DNA of 6,193 bases from a virus. Lineage: Duplodnaviria; Heunggongvirae; Uroviricota; Caudoviricetes. Both the position numbers and the translations under genes were made by a program. Under the pieces are notes generated by a model. The model was not told where the DNA came from. It ran no database searches and saw only the letters and a program-made list of their open reading frames with translations. Every line of letters starts with the position of its first letter. Within the stretch, counting starts at the first letter, position 1. Below, in pieces: positions 1 to 6,193 of the stretch. Location of the stretch: IMG/VR virus record IMGVR_UViG_2693429700_000016. The stretch is one strand, 5' to 3'.

Positions 1-79
1 CATATTCATCCTGACTTTCCAGAACCATACGAATCGCCCGCTGACGGACTTCGGGGGAAAAACGAGTATTTTTAGTCAT
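1..79 (-). CDS. IS3-family transposase OrfA, N-terminal fragment (continues past window edge)
   Basis: Own translation of minus strand from ATG 79-77 gives MTKNTRFSPEVRQRAIRMVLESQDEY with no stop to position 1. Candidate ribosome-binding site AGAGG upstream (revcomp of ~87-91). Confidence 0.8.
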   Translation of the reverse strand, partial: MTKNTRFSPEVRQRAIRMVLESQDEY

Positions 80-108
80 CCTGTTTACCTCTTTCTCAGG
101 GAGTTTAG

Positions 109-133
109 TCTCCAGGATTTCCGGGGCGGTTCA
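109..133 (-). repeat. IS terminal inverted repeat (IRL-like)
   Basis: TGAACCGCCCCGG..TCCTGGAGA shares a 13-nt identical terminus and the TCCTGGAGA block with the opposite-polarity copy at 6070-6094. Confidence 0.75.
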
Positions 134-140
134 GGCTGGT

Positions 141-572
141 GTGATTCTGCTGGGCTTTATGCGTCGGGAGTTAAATCTGTCTAACTCATCTGTGCTTGGG
201 GCCTGTCAGAAACTCCAGGAGGCTGTTGGCTTACCGAATCTGGCACCGCGCTATGCCATTGATGCTCCTGCTGACGCGCCTGATGGCTCAAGCCGCCCCA
301 CGCTGTCACTGAGTGCACTGCTGAAGCAGTATGGTATCTGCCTGACAGCTAATCAGGCATATCACCAGATGGCGAAGCTGGGGATCGTTGAACAACGCGA
401 ACGATACAGCCGTACCGCGATTAACAACATCAAAAAATTCTGGTCGCTGACGGCGAAAGGCTGCATGTTCGGCAAGAACATCACCAGTCCTGCAAATCCG
501 CGCGAGACGCAGCCGCATTTCTTCGAATCCCGATTCCCTGAGCTGTTAAAGCTGCTCGATACCGTTCATTGA
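141..572 (+). CDS. Hypothetical phage protein, probably 5'-truncated by the IS insertion (possibly the C-terminal part of a larger regulator; function not recognised)
   Basis: ORF with GTG at 141 (next ATG at 159), only 8 nt from the IS terminus. In-frame upstream sequence is IS DNA. Stop TGA 570-572 overlaps the start region of the next gene, suggesting coupling. GC-rich coding composition. Confidence 0.5.
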   Translation: MILLGFMRRELNLSNSSVLGACQKLQEAVGLPNLAPRYAIDAPADAPDGSSRPTLSLSALLKQYGICLTANQAYHQMAKLGIVEQRERYSRTAINNIKKFWSLTAKGCMFGKNITSPANPRETQPHFFESRFPELLKLLDTVH

Positions 573-573
573 G

Positions 574-1569
574 GTGACCGTGAGAGCACTACTGACCCCT
601 GAAATTGCCCCGCGTATGGGGATCGTATTGTTCAGGCCAGGTTCAGAGCTGATGCCCCTGTTTATGCAGGGGCGTGTCCTGCTGGAGCCTGAGCCGGAAC
701 GTTACTCATCTTTCGCCAGTGGTGCCGTTCCGGCGGCATCACAACCGCTGGCGGATGATCCTGCCGTTCGGGCCGTGTTCCGCAATGAGGCAGTGATCCG
801 TCGTGCTGGTGGCGTGGAATGTCTTGAAAGCTGGTTACTTCGTGAAAAAGGCTGCCAGTGGCCTCATTCCGACTGGCACAGCGAGAACATGACCACAATG
901 CGACACGCTCCGGGCGCAATCCGTCTGTGCTGGCACTGCGATAACCAGCTGCGCGATCAGTTCACGGAATGGCTGGAATCAATGGCAACGGATAACTGTG
1001 CCCGCTGGGTGTTGTCTGTTGTGCGTCGGGATCTCGGTTTTGATGACAGTCACGTTGTGACAATGCCGGAACTGTGCTGGTGGTTGATTCGTAATGATCT
1101 GGCGGATGCCTTACCGGAAAGTGCAGCCCGTAAGGCACTGAGATTACCGAAGCCTGTTGTGCCATCTGTCACCCGGGAAAGTGACCTTGTGCCTTCGGTT
1201 CCTGCCACCAGCATCATCCAGGATAAAGCGAAAAAGGTGCTGGCGCTGAAAGTGGATCCGGAGTCGCCGGAGTCTTTTATGTTACGCCCAAAACGTCGCC
1301 GCTGGGTTAATGAAAAGTACACGCGCTGGGTTAAGACGCAACCGTGTGCATGTTGTGGAAAGCCTGCTGATGATCCCCACCACCTGATAGGCCACGGTCA
1401 GGGTGGAATGGGTACAAAAGCGCATGATCTCTTTGTGTTGCCTTTGTGCAGAAAGCATCACGACGAGCTGCATGCGGATACCGTGGCATTTGAAGAGAAG
1501 TATGGCTCCCAGCTGGAGCTGATATTTCGTTTTATCGATCGTGCGCTGGCAATTGGCGTGCTGGCCTGA
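574..1569 (+). CDS. DUF968-like prophage protein with C-terminal HNH-like Cys/His motif
   Basis: 331-aa ORF. C-terminus has C-x2-C-G ... D-P-H-H ... P-L-C-R-K-H-H-x-E-L-H spacing typical of HNH/zinc-finger nucleases. Position immediately upstream of Q is typical of DUF968 genes (ydfU-like) in E. coli prophages. Start is GTG at 574 or GTG at 580 (GAGG at 571-574). Confidence 0.7.
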   Translation: MTVRALLTPEIAPRMGIVLFRPGSELMPLFMQGRVLLEPEPERYSSFASGAVPAASQPLADDPAVRAVFRNEAVIRRAGGVECLESWLLREKGCQWPHSDWHSENMTTMRHAPGAIRLCWHCDNQLRDQFTEWLESMATDNCARWVLSVVRRDLGFDDSHVVTMPELCWWLIRNDLADALPESAARKALRLPKPVVPSVTRESDLVPSVPATSIIQDKAKKVLALKVDPESPESFMLRPKRRRWVNEKYTRWVKTQPCACCGKPADDPHHLIGHGQGGMGTKAHDLFVLPLCRKHHDELHADTVAFEEKYGSQLELIFRFIDRALAIGVLA

Positions 1570-1587
1570 TTTTTGTGGAGTAAGTTG

Positions 1588-1932
1588 ATGCGTGATATGT
1601 ATGAAGTATTGGACCGCTGGGGAGCATGGGCTGCAGCAGACAACAGTGGTGTGGACTGGCAGCCGGTAGCAGCAGGCTTCAAGGGGCTTTTACCTCATGG
1701 CAAAAAGTCACGGATTCAGTGTGATGATGACGAAGGCATTATGATAGACAGTTGTGTGGCTCGGTTGAGAAGGTATAAACCAGAGGAATATGAGCTCATC
1801 ATAGCCCACTTTGTTATTGGTATCTCATTACGCACTATTGCCAAAAAGAGAAGGTGCTCTGATGGCACTATTAGGAAGGAGTTGCAAACCGCAATCGGTT
1901 TTATAGAGGGGGTTGTAAGTATACTTGTGTAA
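1588..1932 (+). CDS. Q: Late-gene antitermination protein Q (short quuD-like family)
   Basis: N-terminus MRDMYEVLDRWGAWAA...AAGFKGLL...CDDDEG...CSDG resembles DLP12 QuuD-type Q proteins from memory. GGAG at 1577-1580 precedes ATG 1588; the ORF track's TTG at 1573 is less likely. Stop TAA 1930-1932. Confidence 0.8.
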   Translation: MRDMYEVLDRWGAWAAADNSGVDWQPVAAGFKGLLPHGKKSRIQCDDDEGIMIDSCVARLRRYKPEEYELIIAHFVIGISLRTIAKKRRCSDGTIRKELQTAIGFIEGVVSILV

Positions 1933-1940
1933 AATAATAA

Positions 1941-1959
1941 AAGGCGGTAGTACCGCCTT
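1941..1959. terminator. Perfect hairpin (AAGGCGGTA / TACCGCCTT) between convergent Q and cassette; likely intrinsic terminator for the minus-strand cassette
   Basis: Inverted repeat 1941-1949 / 1951-1959. On the minus strand it is followed by a U-rich tract (revcomp of 1929-1940 = TTTTATTATTTT). The plus-strand downstream tract is not U-rich. Overlaps the stop codon (1958-1960) of the last cassette gene. Confidence 0.55.
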
Positions 1960-2572
1960 AATGATCGAATCGTTGTATGTTTTCATGGAATCTACAAAAG
2001 TGAATAGATATTTTGAATAGTAAAATGTAGAAACCAACTTGACTTAAAGTTATGGCTTTGCATTTATCATTCAAGAGTTTTTGTAATTCTTCCGTTGGTA
2101 ATTGGTATACATCATCAAGAAAAACGATGCATTCTTCTAAGTTGTCTGATTCAGGAAGATAAAAAATATTAGTAATTAACTGCTTCCTTATAGCATCAAT
2201 TTTGCTATCTATTGAAGTCTTAGAAACTCCGTTGGAGAGAAGAATAGCTTCGAACTTAGATAAACTTACTAACGGAGCAAAGACTGCACGCATTGGCACA
2301 TCACGATTATTACTTGTATCTATATCGCAACTGTTGCTTAATATAATTCCTCGTGTTTTTTTAGTCCCTTTAATTGAATATACTGTAAGCTCCTTAAATA
2401 TATCTCCCTGAAGTGCAGCATTTTTCAGATCATCATGATAATTGGTAAGGTAGTAGTTAGTGTTTTCAGGGAAATCTCTAAGTGCATTTATTAGCCCTTC
2501 TTTTTGAGGAGCTGTTAAATAATATGGGATTTGATCTTTGAATTTCTCGATATCAAAAATGTTATTACTCAT
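1958..2572 (-). CDS. Cassette gene C: hypothetical protein (~204 aa), no recognisable motif
   Basis: Long ORF in strongly AT-rich DNA. ATG at 2572-2570 (alternative GTG at 2575-2573) lies directly after the TAA stop (2578-2576) of gene B, suggesting translational coupling. Ends at the terminator hairpin. Confidence 0.7.
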   Translation of the reverse strand: MSNNIFDIEKFKDQIPYYLTAPQKEGLINALRDFPENTNYYLTNYHDDLKNAALQGDIFKELTVYSIKGTKKTRGIILSNSCDIDTSNNRDVPMRAVFAPLVSLSKFEAILLSNGVSKTSIDSKIDAIRKQLITNIFYLPESDNLEECIVFLDDVYQLPTEELQKLLNDKCKAITLSQVGFYILLFKISIHFCRFHENIQRFDH

Positions 2573-2575
2573 CAC

Positions 2576-2920
2576 TTAATCCAAGTATAAATCCCACAGT
2601 GAAGCATGAACGACTTTATTTATTTCACTGCCTAAAGACACCTGGTTTGTTGATAATTTTTCATAAAAGTTTGTCATCGAGACTGCAAGTCTTTGATCAA
2701 CTGAGATTGTGCTCCCTGCTTTATATGTTTGTGTGATGGAATGAACTGAATCGGTAGTTGAAGACTTATACTCCAAAGCGTGATTTTTGACGATTAAACT
2801 TTGTTGAGGACCATGCTGTTGATTTTGGGCAATGTCTGTTAATGCTGTTATATGCAGACCATATAAAACCAAAGTTAATACTTGAAGTTGAGCTCGATAA
2901 ACATGATGAGACGGATACAT
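2576..2920 (-). CDS. Cassette gene B: small hypothetical protein (114 aa) with hydrophobic N-proximal segment
   Basis: ATG at 2920-2918 preceded on the minus strand by GGTGGT about 7 nt upstream (revcomp of 2921-2935 = AAATGGTGGTATGAT). Residues ~10-30 (AQLQVLTLVLYGLHITALTDIA) are hydrophobic. Stop abuts the start of gene C. Confidence 0.6.
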   Translation of the reverse strand: MYPSHHVYRAQLQVLTLVLYGLHITALTDIAQNQQHGPQQSLIVKNHALEYKSSTTDSVHSITQTYKAGSTISVDQRLAVSMTNFYEKLSTNQVSLGSEINKVVHASLWDLYLD

Positions 2921-2935
2921 ATCATACCACCATTT

Positions 2936-3685
2936 CTATTTGTAGGATGGTTCTAGTTCTTGAATTGTTGACTCTTTAAGGCAACTAAAGAAAGCTAATT
3001 TATTACAGGAGTGAAGATCATCAAGAATTTTTTTGGGTTCGTTTTTAAACTTATCTATTTCATCAGTATTAGTGATTTGCCTAATACTGTCTATGTCTAG
3101 GATTAGTCCTTTTTTATTAAATTCTCCATTATCTGACATGACTAAAGCATGAGATAATATTTGAATTATATTTAGAAATGCGCCTTCATTTTTATCGATT
3201 CTGATATTGATCGGATAATTAGACATAGACTCGCCAGCCATATTTAAGCTGACGTTTAGCTTATCAAATAAATTAGAATCGTCTTCTTTTGGGAAAAAAT
3301 CTACATACTTTAATGAGTAGCGGATGATGTTGTCATTTAAATTTAATTTGTTAAGCTCATTTAATACATGAATGATTTTTTCTCTAAAATGACTCCACCC
3401 TTGATATTTGGTGCTGGTGGATACAACAACACCATGGTCACTTAGTCCAATATAGTACCCTTCGATTTCGAGGCGACTGACAACTGCGTAATGTAATTGT
3501 TCATCTCCCTCACGAACATTTTTAGGTATTTGACTGGGTGGTAAACTAATTACTGGTTTTGTACAACCTAGAGCGTGAAAAAGAAACCCTGGAACTATTT
3601 CCGATATTTGTGTTTCTTTAGAAAAACGCATTTCGAAAGCAGCTTCGATTACTGGTTGTTTTGATAGAGATGTTGGAATGAGCAT
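2936..3685 (-). CDS. Cassette gene A: hypothetical protein (249 aa); N-terminal P-V-I-E-A-A-F-E-M-R-F motif resembles TIGR04255-type proteins of unknown function (recognition from memory, unverified)
   Basis: 750-nt ORF, AT-rich codon usage, ATG at 3685-3683, stop TAG 2938-2936 is 15 nt upstream of gene B start. The motif PVIEAAFEMRF plus later IIRYSLKYVDFF and GLILDIDSI blocks fit my memory of that family. Confidence 0.7.
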   Translation of the reverse strand: MLIPTSLSKQPVIEAAFEMRFSKETQISEIVPGFLFHALGCTKPVISLPPSQIPKNVREGDEQLHYAVVSRLEIEGYYIGLSDHGVVVSTSTKYQGWSHFREKIIHVLNELNKLNLNDNIIRYSLKYVDFFPKEDDSNLFDKLNVSLNMAGESMSNYPINIRIDKNEGAFLNIIQILSHALVMSDNGEFNKKGLILDIDSIRQITNTDEIDKFKNEPKKILDDLHSCNKLAFFSCLKESTIQELEPSYK

Positions 3686-3912
3686 TTAAAACCCATAGTA
3701 TGTTTTATGAGCTGATTGGATTTTGAGCATAGCTACCGCACGAATCTTCGAGGAAGATCCAAACATGTGCCTAATGTCGCATCATGCTCAAGGCGGCATA
3801 AATTTTGTTTACTGAGTATAAGATTAACAACCATTAACTTCCATCAAAAATGCTAACGCGTACGCAAAAACTATTGTATCGTGTTAAGAGTGGTCACTTC
3901 GCCACACAGCTT
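3686..3912. promoter_or_regulatory. Divergent control region: expected site of the cassette promoter (minus) and possibly the phage late promoter/qut (plus); exact elements not resolved
   Basis: Non-coding, compositionally intermediate stretch between the cassette start and the lysis leader. Only weak sigma70-like hexamers found by eye, e.g. TTAACA 3824-3829 with AAAAAT 3846-3851. Positional inference only. Confidence 0.3.
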
Positions 3913-3942
3913 AAACCCGCCGTCGAGCGGGTTTGTCGTTTC
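3913..3942 (+). terminator. Hairpin AAACCCGC-CGTCGA-GCGGGTTT followed by GTCGTTTCT: candidate tR'-like intrinsic terminator or late-leader structure upstream of S
   Basis: 8-bp GC-rich stem (3913-3920 / 3927-3934) with 6-nt loop and U-rich tail on the plus strand. Flanking GGTCACTTCG (3892-3901) recalls the lambda pR'-tR' leader from memory. Confidence 0.4.
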
Positions 3943-4085
3943 TGGACCCGGCTATTTGTTGAGCCTGGTCTATACCGCAGTTATCCATTGGCTCGGCCTC
4001 TTTTACGTTTCCGCTTCTGATTTGCGGTACATGATGTTCCCTCAATTTGCACCTCCTGTATTGGCGAGGTGAGAGATAACTACAA

Positions 4086-4412
4086 ATGCCTCATAACCCA
4101 AATACCTGGCTGGAGTTGGTCCAGAGCTGGTGGCGTGGAGACACACCGCTGGGCGCAGTGATTATGTCGATTGTTATGGCTGGTTTACGTATTGCCTATT
4201 TTGGCGGTGGTGGCGGCTGGAAGCGAAAAACACTCGAAATTCTACTCTGTGGTGCTCTGACGCTGACTTTTGCATCCGCTCTTGAGTATGTCGGATGGCC
4301 TAAATCACTATCTGTTGCCATTGGTGGTGGGGTGGGGCTGATCGGTGTCGATGCTATTCGTGGGGCTGCAATGCGAGTAATCGGTAACAAATTTGGTGGC
4401 TCTAAGGAGTAA
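4086..4412 (+). CDS. S: Holin (class I, lambda S-like three-TMD architecture, but a divergent allele)
   Basis: 108 aa. Three hydrophobic segments (about residues 22-39, 49-69, 75-91). Shares the LR..Y.GG...K and IG.D.I pattern with lambda S from memory. Immediately upstream of R; stop TAA 4410-4412. Confidence 0.8.
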   Translation: MPHNPNTWLELVQSWWRGDTPLGAVIMSIVMAGLRIAYFGGGGGWKRKTLEILLCGALTLTFASALEYVGWPKSLSVAIGGGVGLIGVDAIRGAAMRVIGNKFGGSKE

Positions 4413-4415
4413 TTT

Positions 4416-4892
4416 ATGCAGGTACTAAATTCCCAGCGTAAAGCTTTCCTCGATATGGTGGCTTGGTCAGAAGGAACGGATAACGGACGACAACCGACAC
4501 GTAACCACGGTTATGACGTTATTGTTGGTGGTGAACTCTTCACTGATTACTCCGATCACCCTCGCAAACTTGTCACGCTAAACCCGAAACTCAAGTCAAC
4601 AGCCGCCGGACGTTACCAGCTTCTTTCACGCTGGTGGGATGCTTACCGTAAACAGCTTGGCCTGAAAGATTTTTCTCCAGAAAGCCAGGACGCTGTAGCT
4701 CTGCAGCAGATTAAAGAGTGTGGCGCTTTACCGATGATTGATCGCGGTGATATTCGTCAGGCAATTGACCGTTGCAGCAATATCTGGGCTTCACTGCCGG
4801 GTGCTGGTTATGGTCAGTTCGAGCATAAGGCTGACAGCCTGATTGCAAAATTCAAAGAAGCAGGCGGAACGGTCAGAGAGATTGAGGTATGA
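4416..4892 (+). CDS. R: Endolysin R (lambda-type lytic transglycosylase)
   Basis: 158 aa. Sequence [81 protein letters not shown]... is near-identical to lambda R as I remember it. AAGGAG at 4404-4409. Confidence 0.95.
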
Positions 4893-5350
4893 GCAGAGTA
4901 ACCGCGATTATCTCCGCTCTGGTTATCTGCATCATCGTCTGCCTGTCATGGGCTGTTAATCATTACCGCGATAACGCCATTACCTACAAAGCCCAGCGCG
5001 ACAAAAATGCCAGAGAACTGAAGCTGGCGAACTCGACAATTACTGACATGCAGGTGCGCCAGCGTGATGTTGCTGCGCTCGATGCAAAATACACGAAGGA
5101 GTTAGCTGATGCGAAAGCTGAAAATGATGCTCTGCGTGATGATGTTGCCGCTGGTCGTCGTCGGTTGCACATCAAAGCAGTCTGTCAGTCAGTGCGTGAA
5201 GCCACCACCGCCTCCGGCGTGGATAATGCAGCCTCCCCCCGACTGGCAGACACCGCTGAACGGGATTATTTCACCCTCAGAGAGAGGCTGATCACTATGC
5301 AAAAACAACTGGAAGGAACCCAGAAGTATATTAATGAGCAGTGCAGATAG
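4889..5350 (+). CDS. Rz: Spanin inner-membrane subunit Rz (i-spanin)
   Basis: 153 aa. ATGA start/stop overlap with R. N-terminal TM segment ([16 protein letters not shown]) then coiled-coil-like region; near-identical to lambda Rz from memory. Confidence 0.95.
5109..5291 (+). CDS. Rz1: Spanin outer-membrane lipoprotein Rz1 (o-spanin), embedded in the +1 frame of Rz
   Basis: 60 aa. Lipobox VVGC and proline-rich [13 protein letters not shown]. Fully nested inside Rz as in lambda. Confidence 0.9.
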
Positions 5351-5978: not shown

Positions 5979-6069
5979 GTTGAACCTCCTTAATTAATGT
6001 TATTCGAGTGAGGAAGGCATTCTGTCCTTCTATAGTGTCCAGTAAATCAAACAGGAAACTTGTCCAACG

Positions 6070-6094
6070 TGAACCGCCCCGGGTTTCCTGGAGA
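6070..6094 (+). repeat. IS terminal inverted repeat (IRR-like)
   Basis: TGAACCGCCCCGGGTTTCCTGGAGA; partner of 109-133. Confidence 0.75.
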
Positions 6095-6111
6095 GTGTTT
6101 TATCTGTGAAC

Positions 6112-6193
6112 TCAGGCTGCCAGATCATCGTTTCCGATGGAAGCATAATAAGCTTTTTCTGCTTCTGCCGGAGGAGTATGGCCCAGCCTTCCC
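6112..6193 (-). CDS. IS3-family transposase OrfB, C-terminal fragment (partial)
   Basis: Minus-strand frame gives ...GRLGHTPPAEAEKAYYASIGNDDLAA then stop at 6114-6112, about 42 nt inside the IS terminus. The TPPAEAEKAYY tail looks like IS3-family integrase C-termini. Frame choice is my judgement. Confidence 0.5.
   Translation of the reverse strand, partial: GRLGHTPPAEAEKAYYASIGNDDLAA

Follow-up and report, generated by a model that had tools for sequence, protein, structure and literature searches.

The window analyzed here is a 6,193-nucleotide (nt) stretch of DNA from the IMG/VR virus record IMGVR_UViG_2693429700_000016 (Caudoviricetes), and the element in question is a hairpin between its Q antiterminator gene and gene C of a convergent three-gene cassette (A-B-C). 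This stretch holds the late-control region of an Escherichia coli prophage of the lambdoid type and is 98–99.9% identical to chromosomal prophages in several complete genomes. The hairpin is probably the terminator of the A-B-C genes, which would be antisense cargo inserted between Q and the late promoter, pR'. Comparison with related phages supports the placement of pR' and the Q site at 3845–3945, 1.9 kb from Q. The hairpin itself is ordinary; the cargo slot and the dyad at the candidate Q site are of modest interest.

A hairpin fills the gap between Q and gene C

The sequence at 1941–1959 is AAGGCGGTA-G-TACCGCCTT, in which perfect 9-nt inverted arms (1941–1949 and 1951–1959) surround G1950. 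The predicted fold is an 8-base pair (bp) stem (1959–1952 paired with 1948–1941) with five G-C pairs and a 3-nt loop (1951–1949). The minus-strand fold energy is -11.7 kcal/mol (z = -3.7), a value equaled by 1 of 200 shuffled sequences. A 56-nt plus-strand fragment totals -14.1 kcal/mol (z = -3.1; 2 of 200), to which two small neighboring stems contribute along with the hairpin. The Q stop codon TAA occupies 1930–1932, and the stem starts at the ninth nt past it. The minus-strand stop codon of gene C (1958–1960) has 2 nt in common with the stem, and the hairpin exactly fills the 25-nt gap between the two stop codons. The U-tract UUAUUAUUUU at 1940–1931 lies directly 3' of the stem and runs into the Q stop codon. 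It is found on the minus strand only; past the stem, the plus strand reads AAUGAUCG. A terminator scan called the hairpin on the minus strand only and placed it among the two best sites in the window.

A preliminary description of this DNA gave the same position for the palindrome, noted that it overlaps the stop codon of gene C, and placed the U-tract on the cassette strand, all as found here. It also called the hairpin a terminator shared by Q and the cassette, and this part is not supported; the plus strand has no U-tract past the stem and drew no call from the scan. The minus strand has the G+C-rich stem of 5–14 bp, the short loop, and the adjacent U-rich tract of an intrinsic terminator. 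A bidirectional terminator has a U-tract after the stem on both strands, and this one does not. Because the U-tract is on the minus strand only, the hairpin is by sequence a one-way terminator of the cassette and not a shared one. It is most likely an ordinary Rho-independent terminator.

Hairpins at the same junction were then counted in relatives. The count, which replaced a comparison of folding energies, scored hairpins whose perfect stem has 7 bp or more, with at least four G-C pairs, and whose loop is 3–8 nt. Such hairpins are rare in these loci, with a background of 0.05 per 90 nt. One was present within -20 to +70 of the Q stop codon in seven of nine cargo-bearing relatives, and imperfect hairpins occupy that place in the remaining two. 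When the cut-off was relaxed to a stem of 6 bp or more with at least three G-C pairs and a larger set was used, 22 of 33 cargo types had a junction hairpin, mostly starting 2–15 nt past the Q stop codon. The junction hairpins of the relatives have no sequence in common. The strand of their T-tracts varies: some relatives have the tract on the cargo strand and others on the Q strand, and cdtI and a Klebsiella phage have one on each. A single diverged copy of the window cassette was found, on plasmid CP085522 (L014 2501–4377); it was considered as a source of covariation and discarded as a probably error-rich phage-genome assembly. This 41-kb "plasmid" has 16 annotated features, and its cassette copy is full of indels; it matches at 89% over the cassette query and at 87% with 279 gap positions in a wider alignment.

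The late promoter is predicted beyond the cassette

The only non-coding block common to all relatives is 3845–3945, and it travels with the Q type. The predicted -35 of the window is separated from the Q stop codon by 1920 nt, and the predicted late transcription unit does not directly follow Q. The arrangement differs in the cassette-free phages Stx2_EH2201 and PPyecE_EH1910, where the block corresponding to 3860–3945 begins 16 nt past Q and the predicted -35 lies 7 nt past the stop codon. The preliminary description had argued that pR' and its Q utilization site (qut) could not be directly downstream of Q unless they overlapped the Q 3' end, had offered 3686–4085 beyond the cassette as the other location, and had pointed to cassette-free relatives as the comparison to make. 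That comparison agrees with it: the block falls inside 3686–4085 in the window and abuts Q where the cassette is absent. A pR'/qut at 1850–1960 would have contradicted the description, and no promoter-like site was found on the plus strand at 1800–1990.

An alignment of eleven phages divides the block into three parts. The left part is semi-conserved and consists of an A-tract, CTAACG, GCGTACGC, AAAAA, and TATCGT. The core, TGTTAAGAGTGGTyACTTCGCCACACAGCTTAAA, is nearly invariant. A strong terminator at 3912–3935 with a T-tract ends the block in all of the aligned relatives. Of 13 reference sequences, 12 have TAnnnT as the hexamer next to GTTAAGAG and one has CAGTAT; A2 and T6 are present in all 13, and positions 3–5 vary. 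TAnnnT was also present in 65 of 65 loci tallied in a sample chosen by Q similarity. This conservation pattern is the reason for placing the predicted -10 at 3877–3882. An alternative -10, TATTGT at 3872–3877, matches the geometry of phage 21; other Q classes do not conserve it, and it was rejected. The TAnnnT -10 is kept in all Q classes, but the -35 matches the consensus at three of six positions, with a spacer of 16–19 nt. The sequence (T)AAGAGT at 3885–3891 resembles the phage 21 pause element TAAGCT; it is too close to the conserved -10 and does not fit the register.

The pR' transcript terminated at the end of the block is predicted to be ~55 nt, and S follows at 4086. The 5' part of this RNA (GTTAAGAGTGG...CACACAGCTTAAA) is strongly conserved across Q classes, beyond the needs of a promoter or terminator. 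The conserved leader could contain a pause or Q-loading signal or, by analogy with StxS, act as a small RNA in the lysogen. In 933W-type phages, the small RNA StxS is produced from pR' within a 258-nt unit that is distinct from the present one; the RNA predicted for the window is not StxS. The whole window was searched against Rfam (E up to 1) and matched no family; the leader is therefore not a catalogued RNA. Reference phage lambda was tried as a source of a block homologue and has none; the "lambda" matches were to hybrid phages.

Homology is lost inside the 3' end of Q

The Q protein matches Pfam PF06530 with E = 1.2e-44 over profile positions 1–112 of 118, a full-length family match. Its match to the Q21 chains 6p18 and 6jnx is weak (E = 0.0014). 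These matches identify Q as a short member of the Q21/933W family with predicted antitermination activity.

Phages mEp460, SfII, and Stx2a_WGPS2 have nearly the same Q with other cargo. They align with the window from 132 to 1898–1922 and again from 3845/3846. The left homology break is thus within the last 4–12 codons of Q, and the right joint is at 3845. The Q tails of these phages are similar in amino acid sequence and dissimilar in nucleotide sequence. The preliminary description had put the foreign DNA about 25 nt from Q. Homology with the same-Q phages already decays within the Q 3' end, and the mosaic joint is therefore not 25 nt beyond Q. Q proteins beside window-class cargo end after ...G(V/I)xSxL and have 113–116 amino acids (window 1898–1932), and cassette-free and DLP12-type Q proteins have 7–13 extra residues (VRLEMDDWLLKK and similar; L012 3105–3485, L004 1956–2339). 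The C-terminal tail of Q, located at the mosaic joint, appears dispensable.

Related phages carry cargo between Q and the predicted late promoter

Two samples of related loci, drawn from a collection of viral contigs, were surveyed. In the first, the contigs were scanned for the leader core; 120 were returned, and in 97 the fetched DNA included an upstream Q homologue. The block abuts Q at a distance of 4–45 nt in 14 of the 97 and is 625–2460 nt away in the remaining 83. The intervening DNA of this sample and the reference loci forms 33 clusters, 31 of which are coded antisense to Q. The second sample was unbiased for the block, since its 80 loci were chosen by similarity to the window Q alone. 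The GCGTACGC dyad with TAnnnT at a fixed 19-nt offset was found 630–3756 nt past the Q stop codon in 76 of the 80, and the block was next to Q in none. In three of the four exceptions, the DNA available downstream is shorter than 1.6 kb. This sample contains at least 24 cargo clusters, and its leader is conserved, not invariant, with G-TAAGAGTGG as the most constant part. These data indicate that a cargo slot between Q and the predicted pR' is a common layout in related phages.

The same layout is seen upstream of stx genes. In L007 (Stx2a_WGPS2, 2035–7236) and L008 (Stx1_14040, 970–5256) the order is a mini-Q, an antisense cassette of two or three genes, the block, and then stx. Toxin expression in phages of this type should depend on Q acting across the cargo. 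A limited literature search found no description of the size and strand bias of the cargo slot, the dyad and helix classes, or the three-gene cassette, and it gave nothing usable on the leader sequence, TIGR04255, or quuD/essD.

A dyad in the predicted promoter co-varies with the Q recognition helix

In every Q class, the interval between the predicted -35 and -10 contains a short dyad whose position is constant and whose sequence changes with the recognition helix of Q. The pairs were tabulated from loci L044–L163. The window dyad, GCGTACGC, accompanies the helix TIRKELQ across at least 17 cargo types, and GCGGTCCGC accompanies IRIE(I/M)Q across at least 12. The DLP12-type helix YIGKRLQ is paired with TTTACGTACGTAAA, WVGRLLQ with TTTACAATCGTAAA, and the phiP27-type helix (Q/H)(I/V)LKRLQ with GGAATTCC. 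The helices QVVIRLQ and RVRIVIQ are paired with TGTTATAACA and GCGGGCCGC, and TTCGTTACGAA occurs with a 133-residue Q. This co-variation across eight classes is indirect but consistent, and it suggests that the dyad is the Q-binding element. It also points to a Q site that is symmetric, in contrast to the tandem repeats recognized by Q21.

The A-B-C cassette is an old and mobile operon

Of 5426 complete E. coli genomes, 92 contain the cassette; each copy is at least 99% identical and lies beside Q. The same-Q phages lack it. Its presence in only some close relatives and its deviant base composition are those of a moron. The cassette stretch is 28–37% G+C compared to 50–60% in the flanking phage genes. 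The same three genes occur in the same order in ~25 genomes of distant Proteobacteria and Desulfobacterota, in varied neighborhoods and with 38–50% identity in gene C (L016–L040). This distribution indicates that A-B-C is an old, mobile operon that is autonomous and conserved in distant bacteria. No canonical terminator, defined as a hairpin with a T-tract, was found after gene C in any of the 21 distant operons examined; the hairpin therefore belongs to the phage-borne copy.

Gene C has the invariant motifs SNSCD and HFCRFHEN. The family of gene A, TIGR04255, is uncharacterized, and the only matches of genes B and C are to PHROG families whose function is unknown. Searches of Pfam (E up to 10), NCBIfam, and the catalogued defense families of PADLOC returned nothing beyond TIGR04255 for the three genes, and single-sequence and profile searches against Protein Data Bank sequences gave no match. 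The open reading frames flanking 20 distant loci include four phage-integrase matches, one DRT2 locus, and a single HipA and CHAT; the rest are housekeeping. The A-B-C genes are a candidate for an uncatalogued defense or exclusion system. Two candidate cassette promoters at 3802–3844 are weak matches to the consensus; they are not conserved elsewhere because the surrounding DNA is cargo-specific.

Gene content of the window

The features of the window are listed in Table 1. A 400-nt non-coding stretch separates the cassette from the lysis genes, and a convergent bor gene follows Rz/Rz1. Both ends of the window (1–131 and 6062–6193) consist of IS3-family (IS629/IS1203-like) insertion sequence (IS) DNA. 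The left element has its orfA start at 79 on the minus strand (MTKNTRFSPEVRQRAIRMVLESQDEY), and its end at 131 truncates the KilA-N-type gene. The terminal repeat of the right element begins near 6062. Alignments with most other E. coli prophages begin at 132. A tRNA scan detected no tRNA.

Table 1. Features of the 6,193-nt window. Promoter, terminator, and Q-site assignments are predictions.
Feature	Position	Strand	Basis or remark
KilA-N-type regulator gene, truncated	141–572	+	
DUF968/HNH gene	574–1569	+	
Q antiterminator gene, 114 amino acids	1588–1932	+	Pfam PF06530, PHROG 79
Predicted intrinsic terminator of the cassette	1931–1959	-	Stem, loop, and U-tract; overlaps the Q and gene C stop codons
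Cassette gene C, 204–205 amino acids	1958–2575	-	PHROG 4575, E = 1e-96
Cassette gene B, 114 amino acids	2576–2920	-	PHROG 5728
Cassette gene A, 249 amino acids	2936–3685	-	NCBIfam TIGR04255, E = 2.6e-27; PHROG 5464
Candidate cassette promoter TTGTTA-17-CAAAAT	from 3830	-	8/12 consensus matches; diverges from pR'
Candidate cassette promoter TGGAAG-17-TATACT	from 3843	-	8/12 consensus matches; diverges from pR'
A-tract	3846–3850	+	Within predicted pR' region 3845–3882
Predicted -35, CTAACG	3853–3858	+	Weak, 3/6 matches
Dyad GCGTACGC, 8 bp	3858–3865	+	Candidate Q-binding element
Predicted -10, TATCGT	3877–3882	+	Conservation pattern
Initial transcribed region GTTAAGAGTGGTCACTTCGCCACACAGCTTAAA	3883–3915	+	Conserved; contains (T)AAGAGT
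Predicted transcription start	~3889	+	Analogy with phage 21
Predicted tR', 9-bp stem, then TCGTTTCT	3912–3945	+	Best terminator-like site in the window
S holin	4086–4412	+	Lysis genes: Pfam PF05106 and PF03245, RefSeq annotation of identical prophages
R endolysin	4416–4892	+	Late lysis gene
Rz	4889–5350	+	
Rz1	5109–5291	+	

Proposed mechanism and alternative explanations

The arrangement suggests the following model. A low-G+C three-gene operon was inserted antisense into the gap of a few nt that normally separates Q from pR'. In the lysogen, the cassette would be transcribed leftwards from its own promoter near 3800–3845, and its transcription would end at 1931–1940, at the Q stop codon. Termination there, at whatever efficiency the hairpin has, would limit antisense transcription into Q and the early region. 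The late promoter would fire rightwards from the conserved block and stop at its terminator, tR', unless Q is present. After induction, Q would be made from the early transcript. Because the predicted Q-responsive unit is 1.9 kb from the Q gene, Q would have to find its site in trans. There, Q would load onto RNA polymerase, which it would carry past tR' (3912–3945) into S-R-Rz.

Several observations weigh against this model. Over 70 nt, the junction does not fold more stably than the rest of the locus, which includes coding DNA that is richer in G+C. The E. coli copies of the cassette are at least 99% identical and leave no covariation with which to test the stem. The gene C stop codon is inside the stem, and a terminating ribosome could interfere with the hairpin and lower the efficiency of termination. 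At the late promoter, the -35 matches at only three of six positions, the spacer is 18 nt, and a strict promoter scan made no call. No convincing sigma-dependent pause element was found in the phage 21 register, and (T)AAGAGT, as a second -10-like motif, makes the start site ambiguous by a few nt. More than one promoter may feed the late operon, as the RpoE start implied for DLP12 suggests.

The alternatives to a one-way cassette terminator account for less of these data. If the terminator were genuinely shared and bidirectional, it would end the Q transcript as well and insulate the cassette from rightward early transcription. In favor of this idea, the perfect palindrome folds on both strands, the junction hairpins of cdtI and the Klebsiella phage are flanked by A- and T-tracts on each side, and a T-tract occurs on the plus strand in mEp460. 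The idea is nevertheless unlikely for the window, where AAUGAUCG follows the stem on the plus strand and the scan made no call. In lambdoid phages, the polymerase that reaches Q from pR is N-modified and terminator-resistant, which also argues against it. The palindrome might instead be a recombination or insertion structure that mobilizes the cassette, like an integron attC site, as most cargo types have a different palindrome at the same Q-proximal end and the slot holds many alternative cassettes. We consider this very improbable. Neither the cassette nor the adjoining DNA of the window encodes an integrase or recombinase, the hairpins have no common core motif, and many carry the T-tracts typical of terminators. 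The distant cassettes lack a T-tract hairpin after gene C (plain palindromes were not scanned for), and for exchange, homologous recombination within Q and within the conserved leader of pR' would be enough.

The remaining two explanations are slightly less probable still. One places pR'/qut across the Q 3' end and the hairpin (1850–1960), so that late transcription crosses the cassette in the antisense direction and the block is no more than a terminator or an unrelated small-RNA gene. The weak promoter hexamers at 3845–3890 and a leader conserved beyond promoter needs are in its favor. It is opposed by the lack of a promoter-like site at 1800–1990, the variation of the Q 3' end with cargo type, the dyad at 3858–3865 that tracks the Q helix class, and the block that abuts Q in cassette-free phages, as in phage 21. 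The other holds that the palindrome is a chance feature without function, and hairpins of similar total energy are indeed common in the G+C-richer coding DNA of the locus. A chance origin hardly fits a hairpin that exactly fills the convergent gap with a U-tract on the correct strand, that is the only G+C-rich island in an A+T-rich stretch, and whose equivalents occur at the junction far above background. A terminator of the antisense A-B-C cargo remains the reading we favor.

Implications

On this reading, the late promoter and Q site should be annotated at 3845–3945 and the hairpin as the cassette terminator. Q and its cis target would be separable by kilobases of foreign antisense DNA with their pairing kept, and this split bears on the control of Stx and lysis genes in phages with this Q type. 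The joint between Q and pR' is a place to seek new prophage cargo, possible defense systems included, and the eight pairs of Q helix and dyad form a ready specificity set for how short Q proteins read DNA.

A broader proposal combines four elements: the short-Q gap as an antisense cargo slot with fast turnover, Q action at a distance, dyad specificities, and a defense or exclusion role for the cassette. We regard the combination as possible and advance it tentatively, at somewhat less than even confidence. If it is true, the gap between the Q stop codon and pR' of short Q21-family members (113–143 amino acids) would be a dedicated slot for at least 33 cassettes, usually with their own junction hairpin, and Q would routinely act 0.6–3.8 kb from its own gene. 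The Q site would be a single dyad at approximately -31 to -24, with at least eight specificities co-evolved with the helix and a geometry different from the Q21 tandem repeats. The TIGR04255 three-gene cassette would be an uncatalogued defense or exclusion system.

Comparison with known systems

Phage 21 is the closest characterized reference for the predicted promoter. Its genome annotation (OL657228) has the Q stop codon at 1630–1632, the -35 at 1639–1644, the Q-binding element at 1647–1662, and the -10 at 1662–1667. The start site is 1674, followed by the pause element TAAGCTG at 1675–1681 and a terminator that ends at 1723, 50 nt past the start. The Q21 site is between -35 and -10 in the published structures (PMC6606751; bioRxiv 10.1101/651190). 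The window resembles phage 21 in having a PF06530 Q and the predicted order -35, Q site, -10, ~50-nt leader, intrinsic terminator, and lysis genes. The gap from the Q stop codon to the -35 is 6 nt in phage 21 compared to 7 nt in the cassette-free relatives. The window differs in that 1.9 kb of antisense cargo splits Q from the predicted promoter, in the size of Q (114 amino acids compared to 162 for the weakly similar Q21), and in the candidate Q site, which is a single 8-bp dyad instead of two direct TGAGCA repeats.

A split between Q and pR' is not new, as the predicted layout is shared with DLP12 of E. coli K-12 (quuD-nmpC-essD) and phage PA-2 (Q, lc porin, lysis genes). DLP12 has a mini-Q of the same clade, convergent cargo, a hairpin 34 nt past the Q stop codon, and the conserved block (GTTAAGAGTGG at L015 3924) 175 nt before essD; PA-2 has the same block in the same split layout. 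In both, however, the cargo is a porin gene and not a three-gene cassette. DLP12 also differs in the class of its Q and dyad (TTTACGTACGTAAA) and in having a sigma-E promoter in cargo-specific DNA. Q-dependent control of the DLP12 lysis operon is reported, going by references cited in PMC7918800 (Rueggeberg et al. 2013). The primer coordinates in PMC7918800 imply an RpoE-dependent start ~350 nt upstream of the block, in cargo-specific DNA. Cargo can therefore add inputs upstream of tR'. A sigma-E-like promoter, GAACT-N17-TCACT, is present near nmpC at ~3543–3576 of L015, upstream of the block and terminator, and its position is consistent with the start implied by those primer coordinates.

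The cassette can also be compared to phage morons. Morons such as lambda bor and lom and HK97 gp15 are autonomous units of promoter, gene, and terminator between phage genes. Like them, the cassette has a deviant G+C content, is absent from sister phages, and has a predicted terminator and a candidate promoter (8/12), and its expression is presumably independent of the lytic program. Unlike them, it is a three-gene operon that splits a regulator from its predicted cis target and does not lie between structural genes. The hairpin resembles the bidirectional terminators of convergent genes in being palindromic and in occupying a very short gap; it is unlike them in having its U-tract on one strand.

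The Stx cargo of 933W-type phages (Q, pR', tR', tRNAs, stxAB, S) likewise occupies the interval between Q and the lysis genes of a lambdoid prophage. There, stx is downstream of pR'/tR', co-oriented, and Q-dependent (PMC7547250). The window cassette is instead antisense, upstream of the predicted pR', and should be Q-independent. Some Stx phages, Stx2a_WGPS2 and Stx1_14040 among them, are like the window in carrying an antisense cassette between a mini-Q and the block.

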